Shown here: positions 12,265-29,643 of the stretch, piece after piece
Numbering within the stretch: position 1 is the stretch's first letter
Layout: each line of letters starts with the position of its first letter
NCBI GenBank assembly: GCA_049969615.1
Contig: JBMFOM010000012.1
Span: forward strand, 1-29,643
Length of the DNA stretch: 29,643 nucleotides
Direction: 5' to 3'
From: a candidate division WOR-3 bacterium
Lineage (GTDB): Bacteria; Hydrothermota; Hydrothermia; JBDRYB01
Notes under the pieces: model-generated
Seen by the model: only the letters and a program-made list of their open reading frames with translations
What the model was told of the DNA's origin: nothing
Database searches by the model: none
Translations under genes and position numbers: made by a program

Positions 12265-12442
12265 GAAACTCCTGGAAAATCCCGGTTTGTCCTTGGCCAC
12301 TATCCAAAAGCCTCATCATAGCCAGAAGAGCACCCTGAGGAAATGCCCTCGTGGCGGGATTTTGCAAGGGTCCCTCTTAGAAACCTGTTCTCTTGGACAA
12401 AGTGTTCCTGGCTCAAACGAATAGGTTATTACTACTTTATCA

Positions 12443-12575
12443 ACCCTCCAACGGGCAAAGGGCCATGGAGCCGGGTGAGGTGGCAGTTGATCTAAGGGGC
12501 AACATGGCCACAGAGGTCTCAGCCAAAGGCTCACCCGGTTCTCCGACCACATATTTCTATGTGCTTTCTTAGGGG
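12443..12575 (-). ncRNA. Putative (partial) IS110 bridge RNA: 5' hairpin plus target-binding loop
   Basis: Lies downstream of TATAAT (12581-12586, minus); CACATA-GAAA-TATGTG hairpin at 12548-12563; long stem 12530-12544 pairing with 12467-12479, enclosing TGAGACCTCTG (target left flank plus core) and GATCA (complement of core plus right flank). Confidence 0.65.
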
Positions 12576-12607
12576 AAGAAATTATAGAGGCCGGGTAAAG
12601 TGATATA
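12443..12607 (-). mobile_element. Non-autonomous IS110-like mini-element (165 bp plus CA core)
   Basis: Flanked by duplicated CA (12441-12442 and 12608-12609), no TIR; end sequence CAACCCTCCAA is identical to the end of the IS110 transposase element at 29519-29529. Confidence 0.8.
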
Positions 12608-12678
12608 CAGAGGTCTCATCTAAGAACCGCTCCGGACTGTATTTTTAGAACTGGAAGGCCTCAAAAAAATCGTATTGT

Positions 12679-12853
12679 GAGACCCCTGATAAAGTAGCGA
12701 TAACTTACTGGTTTGGGGGGAGGAGCACTTTGTCCAAGAGAACAGGTTCTAAGGAGGGTCCTCCTGAAAGAAAAATCCCGCAACAATGGCATTTACTCAG
12801 GGTTCTCTTCTATCTATGATGAGGCTGACAAACCGGGATTTTTCGGGGGTTTC
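12679..12853 (-). mobile_element. MITE family 1 copy, inverted relative to the 12265 copy
   Basis: gagacccctgataaagtag...gggatttttcgggggtttc is a reverse-complement homologue of 9856-10041. Confidence 0.85.
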
Positions 12854-12877
12854 AATGGATCAATCCACATAACATCA

Positions 12878-12957
12878 CTTAGTTTATCTTTGGAACCCAG
12901 CCTCCACAGGTTCCGGCAACCCCCAGAGTCATTGCCGCAAATTCGTTCAATTTCCCT
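12878..12957 (+). repeat. Divergent repeat family 2 copy
   Basis: cttagtttatctttggaaccc versus cttagtttatctctgaaaccc at 10043; attgccg motif downstream. Confidence 0.5.
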
Positions 12958-13014
12958 CAGCGCACGATCCTCCCCATGATGTTGATTGCGATGGACATTT
13001 GGCCCTGGTGTTTC

Positions 13015-13043
13015 TTGATCCCTAACAGTATATCCGATATAAT
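13015..13043 (+). promoter_or_regulatory. sigma70-type promoter TTGATC-N17-TATAAT, 6 nt before ATG 13050
   Basis: ttgatc cctaacagtatatccga tataat ttgctt ATG; no SD. Confidence 0.65.
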
Positions 13044-13049
13044 TTGCTT

Positions 13050-14648
13050 ATGATCCTCTTTTTGCTGGCAACTTGGATATATCTTCCACGGCTGGCAAAC
13101 GCTCGCCTCGTTGTTCCCGGGGATTCCCTGGTTGTCCTCTACGGCTCTGGCCAGCCCAATCCTGTCTCTGTCAGGCTTGAGGGCCGGTTCGTGCAGTATG
13201 ATCTTGGCCCCATGACCGGAACACCCCTTGATACTCTCTGGCGGGCGATTTTCGCTCTTCCGGCCATGATTGAACCGGGAATCTATAACATCATCCTCTC
13301 AACCCCGGAGGGCGCTGATACCCAACCGAACGCGCTGATGGTCTATCCGGCCTGGCGGGACACAGTTGTCTTTCTGCAGTTTTCTGACATCCATATCGGC
13401 AACACCGCGCAGGAGCTCTTGAGGTTTCAACAGGCTGTTATTGAGGCAAACACGATATACCCTGATTTTATTGTGATAACAGGGGACATAGTTGAGGCTG
13501 GCGAAATAGCGGGGTCCCCAACCTGGTATGGCCAGTTTTTGGCCGCAGCGGAAAATCTCATGGTTCCGGTATTCACGGTCAACGGCAATCACGATTATTC
13601 TCCGGCCACGCGAATGACAAATTATCCGGCGCTGATCAATCCGGAGCTGAATTATTTATTCACCTACTCGGACTGGCTCCTGATGCTCTGCCTGGACACG
13701 GGGCCGATTGATCCGGATTCTTCAAATGCCCGGTGCTGGGGCCTCAGCCGGGAGCAGATAGCCTGGGCGGATAGCGTTCTGGATGCCCATCCTGGTTTCA
13801 CCCAGAAGCTCGCGATGATGCACGGCCCCTTAATTGACTACGACGGCTCGGACAGGTCAAACACCCACGGGAGGGATGAGTTCATAGGTCTCTCGCTGAG
13901 CCATGGGCTAAGCCTCATTCTTCACGGCCACACCCACCACAACAGGTTTTTCCTTTCTGATAGCACCTGGGTTCAGGGGGATGTTCCGGTTTATCCCGCG
14001 ACTCCCTATTTCCTTCAGGAATTGAGCACATGCAAGAACAGCAAGGACACCATGGGCTACAAGAGGATAGAATTATCAAGGGACACGGTCATATCGTTCC
14101 TGGAGGACCAGGACAGGAGCGGATTGCCCGATGGCCTGGGTTCCTTGCTCCTCTGGAACCTGCGGGTTGACTACGCCTATAACCTGGACAGCACGAATTG
14201 CGTCGTGGCCATTGACAACAACAGCCCCAGGACTTTTTACGGTGGAAGGGTCTGGCCAACCATGAACCCGGCATACGAATACGAGGTTCTCGGGCCGGCG
14301 AGGATAATCCGTATGGCTCCGGGAGGTTTCATGGAAGTCGCGGTGGACAGCATTCCTTCCGATGACACGACCATAATTTACATATTCCCGAGGGTATCCG
14401 TTCCCGAGGATAAGAGGGAGGTTCCTGGCCTGCAATTCACAGGTAAAACCCTACGGGCGTTCCCCGGCAGGGGCACGAGCGCGAGGCTCTCGGTCTATGA
14501 TGCCACTGGTAGGCTGATCTCGGTTCTGAAAGAGGGGCCATGGGAGGGGCCGCGCGAGTTCGGCCTCGGTTTCTTGAAGCCCGGAGCATACGTGGCAATC
14601 ATGGACGCGGGGAATTTCGGACAGAGACTCGTCTTCGTGAGAAGGTAG
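13050..14648 (+). CDS. Secreted metallophosphoesterase (calcineurin-like) with C-terminal T9SS/FlgD-like sorting domain
   Basis: SDIH, TGD, GNHD, MHGP, GHTH; hydrophobic N-terminus; C-terminal RLSVYDATGRLI...PGAYV. Confidence 0.85.
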   Translation: MILFLLATWIYLPRLANARLVVPGDSLVVLYGSGQPNPVSVRLEGRFVQYDLGPMTGTPLDTLWRAIFALPAMIEPGIYNIILSTPEGADTQPNALMVYPAWRDTVVFLQFSDIHIGNTAQELLRFQQAVIEANTIYPDFIVITGDIVEAGEIAGSPTWYGQFLAAAENLMVPVFTVNGNHDYSPATRMTNYPALINPELNYLFTYSDWLLMLCLDTGPIDPDSSNARCWGLSREQIAWADSVLDAHPGFTQKLAMMHGPLIDYDGSDRSNTHGRDEFIGLSLSHGLSLILHGHTHHNRFFLSDSTWVQGDVPVYPATPYFLQELSTCKNSKDTMGYKRIELSRDTVISFLEDQDRSGLPDGLGSLLLWNLRVDYAYNLDSTNCVVAIDNNSPRTFYGGRVWPTMNPAYEYEVLGPARIIRMAPGGFMEVAVDSIPSDDTTIIYIFPRVSVPEDKREVPGLQFTGKTLRAFPGRGTSARLSVYDATGRLISVLKEGPWEGPREFGLGFLKPGAYVAIMDAGNFGQRLVFVRR

Positions 14649-20495: not shown

Positions 20496-20578
20496 TGGAG
20501 GGAGGAGGATTTGAACCTCCGTAGGCGTCAGCCAGCGGGTTTACAGCCCGCCCCCTTTGGCCGCTTGGGTATCCCTCC
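20496..20578 (-). tRNA. tRNA-Tyr (GTA)
   Basis: GGAGGGA/TCCCTCC acceptor stem, GCGGG-CTGTAAA-CCCGC anticodon arm, long variable arm, GGTTCAAATCC; CCA not encoded. Confidence 0.95.
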
Positions 20579-20610
20579 GGGGTTTTCCTAAAGGAGTCCT
20601 CTTATTCAAG

Positions 20611-20684
20611 AGCTGGTGGTGGGACTTGAACCCACAACCTGCTGATTACAAATCAGCTGCTCTGCCGGGTTGAGCTACACCAGC
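20611..20684 (-). tRNA. tRNA-Thr (TGT)
   Basis: GCTGGTG/CACCAGC acceptor stem, CTGAT-TTGTAA-TCAG anticodon region, GGTTCAAGTCC; CCA not encoded. Confidence 0.95.
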
Positions 20685-29520: not shown

Positions 29521-29643
29521 ACCCTCCAATATTTTATTCATAATAGACCCCCGTAGTGAGGACTGTGAAGACGAGGTCAACCAGTTTCCTGGCGAGGGCC
29601 GCCTTGGCTTCAAGGGGGCTTTTGCCTTCAGCGAGTTTTCGTC
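29521..29643 (-). mobile_element. IS110-family element, right end (truncated by the window)
   Basis: 13-bp non-coding end followed by the CA core at 29519-29520; end shared with the 12443 mini-element. Confidence 0.8.
29534..29641 (-). CDS. IS110-family transposase, C-terminal 35 aa (partial; not in the ORF track)
   Basis: RKLAEGKSPLEAKAALARKLVDLVFTVLTTGVYYE* matches the IS110/IS116 C-terminal GK...ALARKL...Y pattern. Confidence 0.8.
   Translation of the reverse strand, partial: RKLAEGKSPLEAKAALARKLVDLVFTVLTTGVYYE

Follow-up and report, generated by a model that had tools for sequence, protein, structure and literature searches.

A probable cut-down, gene-less copy of an IS110-type element in the terminal repeat of a MITE

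In the first internal loop of bridge RNAs, the 5′ side carries the top strand of the left target plus the core, and it pairs with the bottom strand over 8–9 nt including the core; the 3′ side of the same loop pairs with the top strand over 4–7 nt, again including the core (PMC11208160). The element ends can be served from a distance: a 22-bp donor of IS621 is functional with the bridge RNA in trans (PMC11208160), and cargo placed between IS ends is mobilised by transposase and RNA in trans (PMC11187229). Mobilisation in trans by the parent's transposase has also been proposed for MITEPpu9 of Pseudomonas putida (PMC12288879). In CazIS110-1, an RNA with only the target-binding loop (TBL-only RNA) reportedly exceeds the full bridge RNA ≈10-fold in abundance and can support the first strand-transfer step (10.1101/2025.10.25.684509).

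Here, we describe a 165-bp insert in a stretch of 29,643 nucleotides (the window) from an uncultured bacterium. The insert appears to derive from an RNA-guided element of the IS110 type that is present in many copies, and to be a shortened version of it that has no gene. It is probably an internally deleted, non-autonomous copy of an IS110-family (IS110-group) element whose parent inserts site-specifically in the right terminal inverted repeat (TIR) of a MITE, a reading in which we have good confidence.

The insert, its parent and their target sites

The mini-element interrupts the right TIR of an ≈180-bp MITE at window positions 12443–12607. The features of this region, together with a parent copy at the end of the window, are the following.

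12265–12442, plus strand: MITE copy A, its body, with the left TIR GAAACTCCTGGAAAAT at one end and ...ACTTTATCA at the other; the final CA (12441–12442) is one copy of the core.
12443–12607, minus strand (sense strand): the mini-element, 165 bp, made up of 156 nt of the parent left end (LE) and the last 9 nt of the parent right end (RE).
12443–12451, minus strand: TTGGAGGGT, the last 9 nt of the parent RE (left donor), identical in ten full-length RE copies.
12608–12617, plus strand: remainder of the right TIR of MITE A, CAGAGGTCTC, with the second core copy as its leading CA.
12613–12683, no strand assigned: small repeat of ≈71 bp with GTCTCA...TGAGAC ends, between MITE copies A and B.
12678–12856, minus strand: MITE copy B, inverted, its right TIR TGAGACCCCTGATAAAGT intact and unoccupied.
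29521–29643, minus strand: RE of a full-length copy of the parent, truncated where the contig stops; the 35 final codons (29641–29537) are followed by the stop (29536–29534) and 13 nt.

An earlier note, made from the letters of the window, had described an IS110-like mini-element guided to a MITE end, and this description is borne out both by the target sites and by the homology of the element ends. As the note had it, the right TIR is split into the halves ACTTTATCA (12434–12442) and CAGAGGTCTC (12608–12617) with 165 bp between them, and the CA core is doubled, at 12441–12442 and 12608–12609. Both MITE ends were set by the consensus of 60 near-full-length copies plus their flanks. The right end of this consensus reads ...ACTTTATCAG[A/G]GGTCTC(A), with conservation falling immediately beyond it, and its reverse complement GAGACCYCTGATAAAG matches the left TIR GAAACCCCTGAAAAAT at 13 of 15 positions (by eye). 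The family gave 152 BLAST hits in the genome, of which 61 were near full length (≈180 bp). The host repeat is small, gene-less, present in many copies and bounded by TIRs, as expected of a MITE. The ≈71-bp repeat that lies next to it has ≈20 matches elsewhere in the genome, at 74–87% identity.

The ends of the insert recur throughout the genome. There are 15 LE junctions, consisting of two minis and 13 contig ends, which are 97–100% identical over 65–165 nt. These 15 loci are all distinct, and the sole similarity between their flanks is that of contigs C156 and C29 (82% over 180 nt). The earlier note had staked its reading on the left end of the full-length element being homologous to that of the insert; 12494–12607 is indeed homologous to the 13 contig-end copies, with 97–100% identity over 65–114 nt. 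The RE junctions number 12, two of the mini type and ten, on further contig ends, of the full-length type. The full-length RE differs from the mini except in the last 9 nt, TTGGAGGGT, and the base preceding these is already different. No contig was found in which the RE runs on past 123 nt, or the LE past 114 nt. The genome holds at least about 13 copies of the parent IS.

We considered the possibility of a chance likeness, or of an artefact in the assembly of a repeat-rich metagenome bin. The genome is a bin of 203 contigs rich in repeats, and many of the element copies lie at contig ends. However, two complete minis sit inside long contigs, the same junctions were found 15 + 12 times, contigs from two independent studies contain the mini junction, and the 11-nt match between insert and flank described in the next section was reached by none of 2000 shuffles. 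Such an origin is therefore hardly credible.

The other copies also occupy the kind of site that the note had predicted for them. The left junctions read GAGACCYCTG in 12 of 15 cases and are one base off in two more; the remaining junction, that of the mini on contig C3, does not match. The right junctions start with TGAT in 12 of 12. The target of the parent is GAGACCYC-TG-AT, in the right TIR of the MITE, and it is used in a single orientation. Unoccupied GAGACCYCTGAT sites left in the genome number 65. Sites resembling the left TIR (GAAACCYCTGAA) differ from the target by two bases (the left-TIR variant is GAAACCCCTGAA), and the IS occupies 0 of 85 of them. Within the window, CAGRGGTCTC occurs four times against 0.14 expected, two of the four being MITE ends. 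The RE copy at 29521–29643 is flanked by ...GGATCA (sense TGATCCGG), which is not MITE body, and the second complete mini, at G000:C3:23285–23449, has the left flank GGCCTCCTG, in which ≈5 of 9 guide positions match.

Outside this genome, the LE had no match among 40 related genomes, and nothing was found of the element in exact-pattern scans of metagenome contigs or in a scan of viral contigs. Two matches in a scan of genome contigs were rejected as chance, the common sequence being limited to a 21-mer.

Predicted guide RNA region of the insert

The minus strand of the insert contains a series of elements arranged as in the 5′ part of a bridge RNA, given here in their order on that strand.

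12581–12586, minus strand: TATAAT, the candidate −10 box of a putative promoter, read from the sequence.
12548–12563, minus strand: 5′ hairpin CACAUA-GAAA-UAUGUG, in the MFE and centroid folds.
12467–12544, minus strand: target-binding stem-loop with the outer stem GGAGAACCGGGUGAG / CUCACCCGGCUCC and the inner stem UGGC / GCCA, enclosing an internal loop.
12511–12521, minus strand: left target guide UGAGACCUCUG, the whole 5′ side of the internal loop, equal to the left target plus the TG core.
12498–12509, minus strand: capping hairpin GGC-CAUGUU-GCC, in the MFE and centroid folds.
12488–12493, minus strand: candidate right target guide (AG)AUCA, recognised from its letters, in which AUCA complements TGAT, i.e., the core plus 2 nt.
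12452–12466, minus strand: 15-nt tail AUGGCCCUUUGCCCG, 3′ of the target-binding stem.

The internal copy of the flank proposed in the earlier note is exact, CAGAGGTCTCA at 12511–12521 being identical to 12608–12618. The longest string common to the element interior and the 20-nt left flank is 11 nt, a length that 0 of 2000 shuffles reached. The guide matches 11 of 11 nt at the window's own site and 8–11 of 11 at 14 of the 15 junctions. At target variants with a C at the Y position, the U of the guide would pair as a G-U wobble.

The remainder of the proposed fold (TATAAT, the GAAA-tetraloop hairpin, a long stem with an internal loop, and the GGC-CATGTT-GCC cap) was recovered on the minus strand in both the MFE and centroid structures, in which the long stem pairs 12544–12530 with 12479–12467. 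The fold beats those of shuffled sequences modestly, with z = −1.70, and 8 of 200 shuffles fold equally well. The element copies are 97–100% identical, hence covariation is absent and the evidence for the fold is thermodynamic.

The hexamer AGATCA is present on the 3′ side of the loop (12493–12488, minus strand), as claimed, but against the MITE target TGAT only AUCA pairs; at two sites outside the MITEs, the longer GAUCA is complementary to TGATC. Pairing of AUCA with TGAT is predicted for 12 of 12 junctions, yet a 4-nt match arises somewhere in 1987 of 2000 shuffles. The chance of such a match landing in the 13-nt side of the loop is ≈4% by our estimate. Taken together, the candidate guide layout matches the published rule for bridge RNAs (PMC11208160), with predicted pairing of the two loop sides to opposite strands of the target.

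A transcript starting ≈7 nt past TATAAT would reach the end of the target-binding stem after ≈108 nt, and the predicted fold of the minus strand of the insert resembles that of a bridge RNA over its initial ≈105 nt, with a 5′ hairpin followed by a target-binding loop. We did not find a donor-binding loop in the mini, where the longest match of the left-donor-guide type was 6 nt (equalled in 340 of 2000 shuffles) and the longest of the right-donor-guide type was 4 nt. The mini corresponds at most to the target-binding half of a bridge RNA, and the 15-nt tail AUGGCCCUUUGCCCG may, from its position, be the 5′ strand of a lost donor-binding stem. Rfam 15 had no match for the element; it gave only tRNAs at the gathering score, and noise up to E 10. 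In a control, six loci with genuine genes for PF02371 transposases were equally without a match, and its silence here therefore says nothing.

The hexamer located 18 nt upstream of TATAAT is CTGTAT when the element is integrated, and a consensus scan of the minus strand in this state found no full sigma-70 promoter. Joining RE, core and LE in a circle would give TTGTAT-18 nt-TATAAT (by eye). No contig with an RE–LE circle junction was seen among the Logan contigs placed on the window, to which run X3 contributed none.

Family of the parent element

The parent ends, TATATCAC... and ...TTGGAGGGT, have no inverted repeats and are bounded by the TG core on both sides; there is no target duplication beyond this 2-nt core, and there are no subterminal hairpins at both ends. 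The element thus combines an absence of TIRs with sequence- and orientation-specific insertion and a short core on both sides, as IS110 elements do. Its non-coding LE is long (at least 114 nt in a full-length copy, 156 nt in the mini), and the stop of the parent gene lies 13 nt before the tip of the RE. This arrangement of a long upstream and a short downstream non-coding end is likewise that of IS110.

The interior of the IS is missing from the assembly, so the family assignment rests on the 35 C-terminal residues encoded in the RE, with a predicted end ...ALARKLVDLVFTVLTTGVYYE. Among 18,950 NCBIfam models, this 35-residue fragment had a single match, the IS110 RNA-guided transposase model NF033542 (E 0.0039), with residues 1–31 aligned to profile positions 311–341 of 343. 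PHROG 2199 (“transposase”) matched it with E 0.0024. A tblastn search of plasmids gave 383 records; among the best 30 of these 383, 20 were annotated at the match, and all 20 were IS110 transposases, the IS110 matches having 45–57% identity. Compared with four PF02371 transposases from genomes of the same class, the RE peptide came first of 2.1 million six-frame genomic 21-mers against the C-terminal helix of two, and it was the rank 1 phmmer match for two of four. When the whole genome was scanned with NF033542, the RE fragment came second (E 0.039); the top match, on contig C15, was discarded as a coiled-coil frame that is not a transposase.

Several other searches were silent. PF01548 (DEDD) and PF02371 (C-terminal serine) had no match in the assembly, which is 98% complete and lacks the IS interior. 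Pfam gave no match for the 21- or 35-residue fragment, PDB none for the 21-residue one, and NCBIfam none for the 21-residue one. The fragment falls past the end of the Pfam PF02371 model, and the same is true in L023, a transposase of the same class. Against 1.84 billion representative proteins, the 35-residue fragment found one spurious repeat protein only, which was set aside.

As far as it is visible, the parent appears to belong to the IS110 family, an assignment based on 35 C-terminal residues with individually weak scores. The parent could instead be a site-specific element of another family (e.g., of the IS200/IS605 type, or one using a tyrosine or serine recombinase) in which the 11-mer is a captured copy of the target. 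Such an element would be in keeping with the lack of a visible catalytic transposase domain, with the blank Rfam result, and with the statistical weakness of the right guide and of the fold. Rfam is, however, uninformative on this point, having been equally blank at six real PF02371 loci, and the C-terminal fragment has its family matches solely among IS110 transposases, with the C-termini in register. The absence of TIRs and of paired subterminal hairpins, and a duplication limited to the 2-nt core, also speak against another family, and we consider this explanation very improbable.

Two further elements were examined for comparison. A five-copy IS in the relative G028 was dropped as a structural comparison; it has subterminal inverted repeats and is of the IS1111 type. 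In an IS110 element of Arsenophonus, inspected by eye, the LE contains TAAAATCGCT, which equals the left flank plus CT, and TACAAG complements CTTGTA at the start of the LE. This is a partial control, in which the 3′ end and the left donor guide were not placed.

Mobility, origin and relation to known systems

In our preferred reading, of a non-autonomous IS110-family copy, the mini would retain the first 156 nt of the parent, with the −10 box, the 5′ hairpin and the complete target-binding stem-loop, and would have lost the donor-binding loop and the transposase gene. Any reading of its target would follow the manner of IS621. The mini would also keep the left donor (9 nt), the core and the right donor, and since these are intact, the recombinase and bridge RNA of the full-length copies should be able to move it in trans. 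We count in favour of such mobility that the two minis are 97.0% identical and the MITE bodies flanking them 81.1%. In addition, the RE side specific to the mini is linked in Logan contigs from two studies (X1, X2) to a third flank, which corresponds to an empty GAGACCTCTGAT site in the present genome (C48). The X1 contig joins the flanks of two different loci of this genome and is possibly chimeric, and the third-site flank lacks 6 nt found in C48. The mini has parent-like ends, no transposase and more than one site, as does MITEPpu9, and in these respects it is a non-autonomous derivative.

Alternatively, the minis could be immobile scars that never transposed as such, left where resident full-length copies underwent the same recurrent deletion through repeats shared by the left donor guide and the 3′ end. 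The RE remnant of exactly 9 nt plus core has the same length as the left target guide of 9 nt plus core, and it starts 15 nt past the target-binding stem, where the 5′ side of the donor-binding loop is expected (PMC11208160). Half-match (donor-only) recombination is reported for IS621 (10.64898/2026.08.31.748434). However, the direct repeat is putative, the full-length LE having been recovered to nt 114 only. The C3 mini has a T at LE nt 21, as do four full-length copies, and the C12 mini has the C of the others, but a single common SNP is weak evidence. Furthermore, the donor half-sites that the minis have kept would permit mobilisation in trans, and published assays show that similar mini donors move. 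We therefore regard immobile scars as unlikely.

It is conceivable, and we suggest it tentatively as somewhat short of an even chance, that the guide system itself gave rise to the mini: recombination between repeats would yield a mobilisable, recurrent by-product that constitutively encodes a TBL-only RNA and could tune the transposition of the parent. By the published rule, the 3′ tip of the element (TTGGAGGGT + TG) would be directly repeated in the DNA that specifies the left donor guide. A single event, through either the recombinase acting on a donor half-match or slippage between the repeats, would then remove the whole transposase gene together with the remainder of the donor-binding loop, and the TTGGAGGGT of the mini may double as the left donor guide where this deletion happened. 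Such a deletion predicts TTGGAGGGTTG at approximately nt 157–167 of the full-length LE, with the 5′ side of the second loop, UUGGAGGGUUG, starting exactly where the RE remnant of the mini starts. If true, every IS110 element could be expected to give rise to minis of this kind repeatedly, and the minis could tune parent transposition by supplying a TBL-only pathway or by competing for the recombinase.

The RNA-guided mechanism is already known, and the insert, read as a non-autonomous IS110-family copy, is a tidy natural example of it. The bridge-RNA rule can be read directly from the genome, in which, for one guide, ≈15 sites are occupied, 65 are free and 85 others, nearly identical, are never used, and the end of one mobile element serves another as a landing pad. 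After MITEPpu9, it offers a second example of a gene-less IS110 derivative; all that it preserves is the RNA's target-binding half and, from the other end, a remnant as long as a guide, and the remnant suggests a route by which minis arise. We know of no IS110 biology described so far in the phylum of the host. The host of the parent is a hot-spring bacterium, its core is TG and its left guide spans 10–11 nt; the parent recombinase, when recovered, could be a heat-tolerant bridge-recombinase tool.

Among the known systems closest to the element is IS621 of Escherichia coli (PMC11208160, PMC11208158). Both lack TIRs, have a 2-nt core on both sides and use a repeated intergenic target. In both, the RNA is encoded (here, by prediction) in the 5′ non-coding end and has a 5′ stem-loop, after which comes another that includes an internal loop. 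The left target plus core is repeated on the 5′ side of this loop, and the 3′ side contains a 4-nt complement of the core plus 2 nt (here, a candidate guide); the target-binding loop ends ≈105 nt after the start of the RNA. The core, however, is TG here and CT in IS621, the left guide has 10–11 nt rather than 9, and the target is a MITE TIR rather than a REP. There is no sequence similarity between the two, the present host is an uncultured hot-spring bacterium, and the mini studied here has the donor-binding loop and the recombinase gene deleted.

The ISPpu9-associated MITEPpu9 (PMC12288879) is similarly gene-less, has ends like those of its IS110-family parent and is found at several sites. 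Its cargo is the gene of the small RNA Ssr9, taken from downstream of tnp, whereas the present mini contains, of the putative bridge RNA, the half that binds the target and lies next to the promoter, and only 9 nt of the other end. Some elements of the IS1111 group are also DEDD-family IS that use the TIR of another transposable element as a specific target, in one orientation. They have subterminal inverted repeats and an RNA downstream of tnp, whereas the present element has no such repeats and its RNA region is upstream. Finally, the TBL-only RNA of CazIS110-1 and the seekRNA of ISEc21/ISEc11 (PMC11187229) are truncated transcripts of an intact element. In the present case, by contrast, the RNA is predicted, and its shortening is fixed in the DNA itself, namely in a separate mini-element.

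The insert and its host repeat

The insert occupies part of a 779-bp intergenic stretch (12265-13043), flanked by an HtrA-type protease gene on one side and a metallophosphoesterase gene on the other, in a bin of 2.06 Mb (203 contigs, 98% complete) whose best-matching public runs are labelled hot-springs metagenomes. The following features are found here:

12265-12442 (+12608-12617): ~180-bp repeat, copy 1, inverted relative to copy 2
12678-12856: ~180-bp repeat, copy 2, inverted relative to copy 1
12443-12607, sense on the minus strand: 165-bp gene-less insert (the mini-element)

The ~180-bp repeat has 152 BLAST matches in the genome, including 61 close to full length. A consensus built from 60 copies and their flanks begins with GAAACCCCTGAAAAAT and ends with ACTTTATCAGRGGTCTC(A), and conservation falls sharply beyond both ends. 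Since the termini match as imperfect inverted repeats at 13 of 15 positions, "MITE" is a fair name for it. Between the two copies is a small repeat of ~71 bp (12613-12683) whose short ends are inverted (GTCTCA...TGAGAC) and which has ~20 copies elsewhere in the genome at 74-87% identity (BLAST). A further, unrelated repeat, ...GGGGAATTGCCTTATTTTATCAGCGAAATGCGGAACCCGG..., also breaks the assembly, at no fewer than eight contig ends (at least one each in C20, C23, C34, C66, C88, C98, C107 and C166), and could represent another multi-copy element. At 20496-20684, Rfam detects a pair of neighbouring tRNA genes on the minus strand (58 and 71 bits).

As the earlier note had described, the right end of the MITE is broken after ACTTTATCA by the 165 bp, with CA on either side, and CAGAGGTCTCA at 12511-12521 reproduces the flank at 12608-12618 without a mismatch; an 11-nt match occurred in none of 2000 shuffles. 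Fold prediction also reproduced the minus-strand layout of TATAAT, a GAAA-capped hairpin and a long stem enclosing an internal loop, in which UGAGACCUCUG forms the entire 5' side and CCUUAGAUCAACU the 3' side, capped by a small GGC/GCC hairpin. The fold energy was only modestly better than that of shuffled sequences (z = -1.70; 8/200 as good).

A larger parent element and its family

A second complete mini-element, 97.0% identical to that in the window, was found at C3:23285-23449 on another contig of the bin. The part of the insert adjoining 12607 is also held by 13 contig ends, over 65 to 114 nt at 97-100% identity, each of which breaks off within the insert sequence, as is typical of a multi-copy repeat that has collapsed. 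Full-length copies are thus homologous to this end of the mini-element, a check proposed by the earlier note, and none of the contig-end copies in this genome extends past nt 114 of the parent's 5' non-coding end (LE). The opposite side of the repeat appears at 10 further contig ends, the window's own 3' end (29521-29643) among them, which read MITE body ...ACTTTATCA, then ACCCTCCAATATTTTATTCATAATAG... Because the mini-element reads ACCCTCCAACGGGC... at this position, its identity with the full-length 3' end (RE) is limited to 9 nt (sense TTGGAGGGT). The mini-element is therefore built from the two ends of a larger element, 156 nt from one and 9 nt from the other; the interior of this larger element was absent from the bin. 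The RE at 29521-29643 (minus strand) occupies a site without a MITE body (flank sense TGATCCGGG). In C63:1-220, the RE of a full-length copy is itself interrupted, between ...GAATAAAATA and AATATTGGAGGGT, by ~110 bp resembling the small GTCTCA...TGAGAC repeat, a nested insertion within the IS.

On the minus strand, the RE closes an open frame (...RKLAEGKSPLEAKAALARKLVDLVFTVLTTGVYYE), with the stop codon followed by 13 nt to the tip; of the sequence available for the transposase gene, the window's 3' end supplied the most, 35 codons. The sole NCBIfam match of this C-terminal fragment was NF033542, "IS110 family RNA-guided transposase", with residues 1-31 aligned to positions 311-341 of the 343-position profile (E 0.0039), and it matched PHROG 2199, "transposase", with an E of 0.0024. 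A tblastn search of 72,556 plasmids matched 383 records; among the best 30, an annotated feature lay beneath the match in 20, all 20 being IS110-family transposases, and 10 were unannotated there. Four PF02371-bearing transposases from same-class genomes served for comparison of the C-terminal helix. For two of the four, the fragment was the top 21-mer among 2.1 million, and phmmer ranked it first for two and second or third for the other two. The scores are individually weak and the queries related; all converge on one place in one family, pointing to an IS110 transposase. Profile searches of the assembly with PF01548 and PF02371 gave no match, the catalytic part of the parent transposase being absent from it, and searches of related genomes, metagenomes, species genomes and viral contigs did not recover the parent.

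The fragment matches are joined by traits of the IS110 group: the element lacks terminal inverted repeats, is flanked by TG on both sides, and has a non-coding end that is long upstream of the gene and short downstream. The observation in the earlier note is confirmed, and its interpretation, an RNA-guided IS110 aimed at a resident MITE terminus, is supported. In a same-class relative (G028; loci L027/L030), an IS1111-type element of ~1.78 kb is present five times; it encodes a PF02371 transposase and has subterminal inverted repeats (ATAATGTTTGTTG / ACAAACATTAT).

Target sites and guide

Mapping the copies to their flanks, also proposed previously, recovered the target at most left and all right junctions.

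Left junctions in element sense (slash, junction)
nGAGACCYCTG/TATATCAC: 12 of 15 cases
AAGACCCCTG: 1 of 15 (contig C93)
GAGACCTCTT: 1 of 15 (contig C156), core mismatch
GGCCTCCTG: 1 of 15 (C3 mini-element), unrelated to GAGACCYCTG

Because the flanks past the 10-nt left target are mutually unrelated, with the one exception of C156/C29 (82% over 180 nt), the 15 junctions represent separate loci. The right junctions read GGAGGGT/TGAT in 12 of 12, continuing with AAAG (MITE body) in 10, AAAC in one and CCGG in one (the window's end, not MITE). The genome holds 65 unoccupied GAGACCYCTGAT sites. At its left TIR, the same MITE carries GAAACCYCTGAA, which departs from the target by a single base either side of the core; none of the 85 such sites is occupied, which amounts to a natural specificity test. 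The C3 mini-element (flank C3:23450-23470) adjoins the MITE body at one end and has GGCCTCCTG at the other, in place of the TIR tip GAGACCYC; this could reflect loss of adjacent sequence, rearrangement between IS copies, or insertion off target (half-match).

According to the published bridge-RNA rule, based on IS621 and 5,511 target-RNA pairs, the 5' side of the first internal loop equals the top strand of the left target plus core, while the 3' side complements the core and right target (PMC11208160). By this rule, the 5' loop side of the mini-element, 11 nt of top-strand left target plus TG, would be the left guide. In nine of the 15 left targets a C stands at the position where the guide has U; that U would then face a bottom-strand G in a wobble pair. 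On the 3' side, AUCA, the complement of TG+AT, is a candidate right guide. Of the AGATCA proposed earlier, only AUCA pairs with the MITE target TGAT, and GAUCA fits the two TGATC sites (the window's end and contig C48); the right guide is not significant alone. The sigma-70 promoter in the integrated state is not a full consensus match; both right guide and promoter are putative. Counted from ~7 nt beyond TATAAT, the stem-loop is complete after about 108 nt. The mini-element therefore carries the target-binding half only. The bridge-RNA-like guide of the earlier note stands for that half; for donor-type guides, a match search against shuffles found nothing above chance inside the mini-element. 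Rfam gave no bridge-RNA match at the mini-element, a silence that is uninformative because six control loci were missed too.

Origin, mobility and comparison with known systems

By the IS621 rule, the left donor guide would repeat the element's own 3' tip together with the core, so that a direct repeat of the tip would be expected inside the 5' end of every full-length copy. A deletion between the tip and this guide-encoding repeat would give exactly this mini-element. Its RE remnant is guide-sized (9 nt plus core, the same as the left target guide) and starts 15 nt past the target-binding stem, where the 5' side of the donor loop is expected. The bolder reading is that the mini-element arose by deletion between donor-guide DNA and 3' tip; a random deletion sparing just the minimum would be a coincidence.

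The two mini-elements are 97.0% identical, versus 81.1% for the adjoining MITE bodies. Logan contigs from two studies link the mini-specific side (12439-12498 onward) to a non-MITE flank; all 30 nt of it that were compared occur in C48 beside an empty GAGACCTCTGAT site. This target-like site (GAGACCTCTGATCATATACCCC, about 14239-14256), outside any MITE and empty in this genome, appears mini-occupied in contigs of two public hot-spring runs that lack 6 nt present beside the C48 site; the contig from run X1 continues into the flank of a different locus, C60. The junction is support for, not proof of, a third insertion site. The mini-element retains left donor (9 nt), core and right donor. In IS621, a 22-bp donor recombines with RNA given in trans (PMC11208160, section 8), and cargo between ISEc11 ends is mobilised by transposase and RNA in trans (PMC11187229, section 11). 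Given the identity, the third-site junction, the retained donor half-sites and core and this published precedent, the simplest reading is that full-length copies mobilise the mini-element in trans.

A preference of IS110 elements for repeats, including REP elements, is established. IS4321/IS5075 reportedly use the TIRs of other transposons as targets. RNA-guided IS110 elements are likewise established (PMC11208160, PMC11208158, PMC11187229). The papers retrieved by full-text searches on bridge RNAs with MITEs, or on non-autonomous IS110 elements with bridge RNAs, describe no natural mini-element with the target-binding half hard-wired. One gene-less IS110 derivative in print, MITEPpu9, appears in the Discussion of PMC12288879 and resembles the present mini-element in being gene-less. 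Section 8 of a preprint (10.1101/2025.10.25.684509) describes abundant RNAs with only the target-binding loop; those are truncated transcripts, whereas in the present mini-element the target-binding half would be hard-wired in the DNA.
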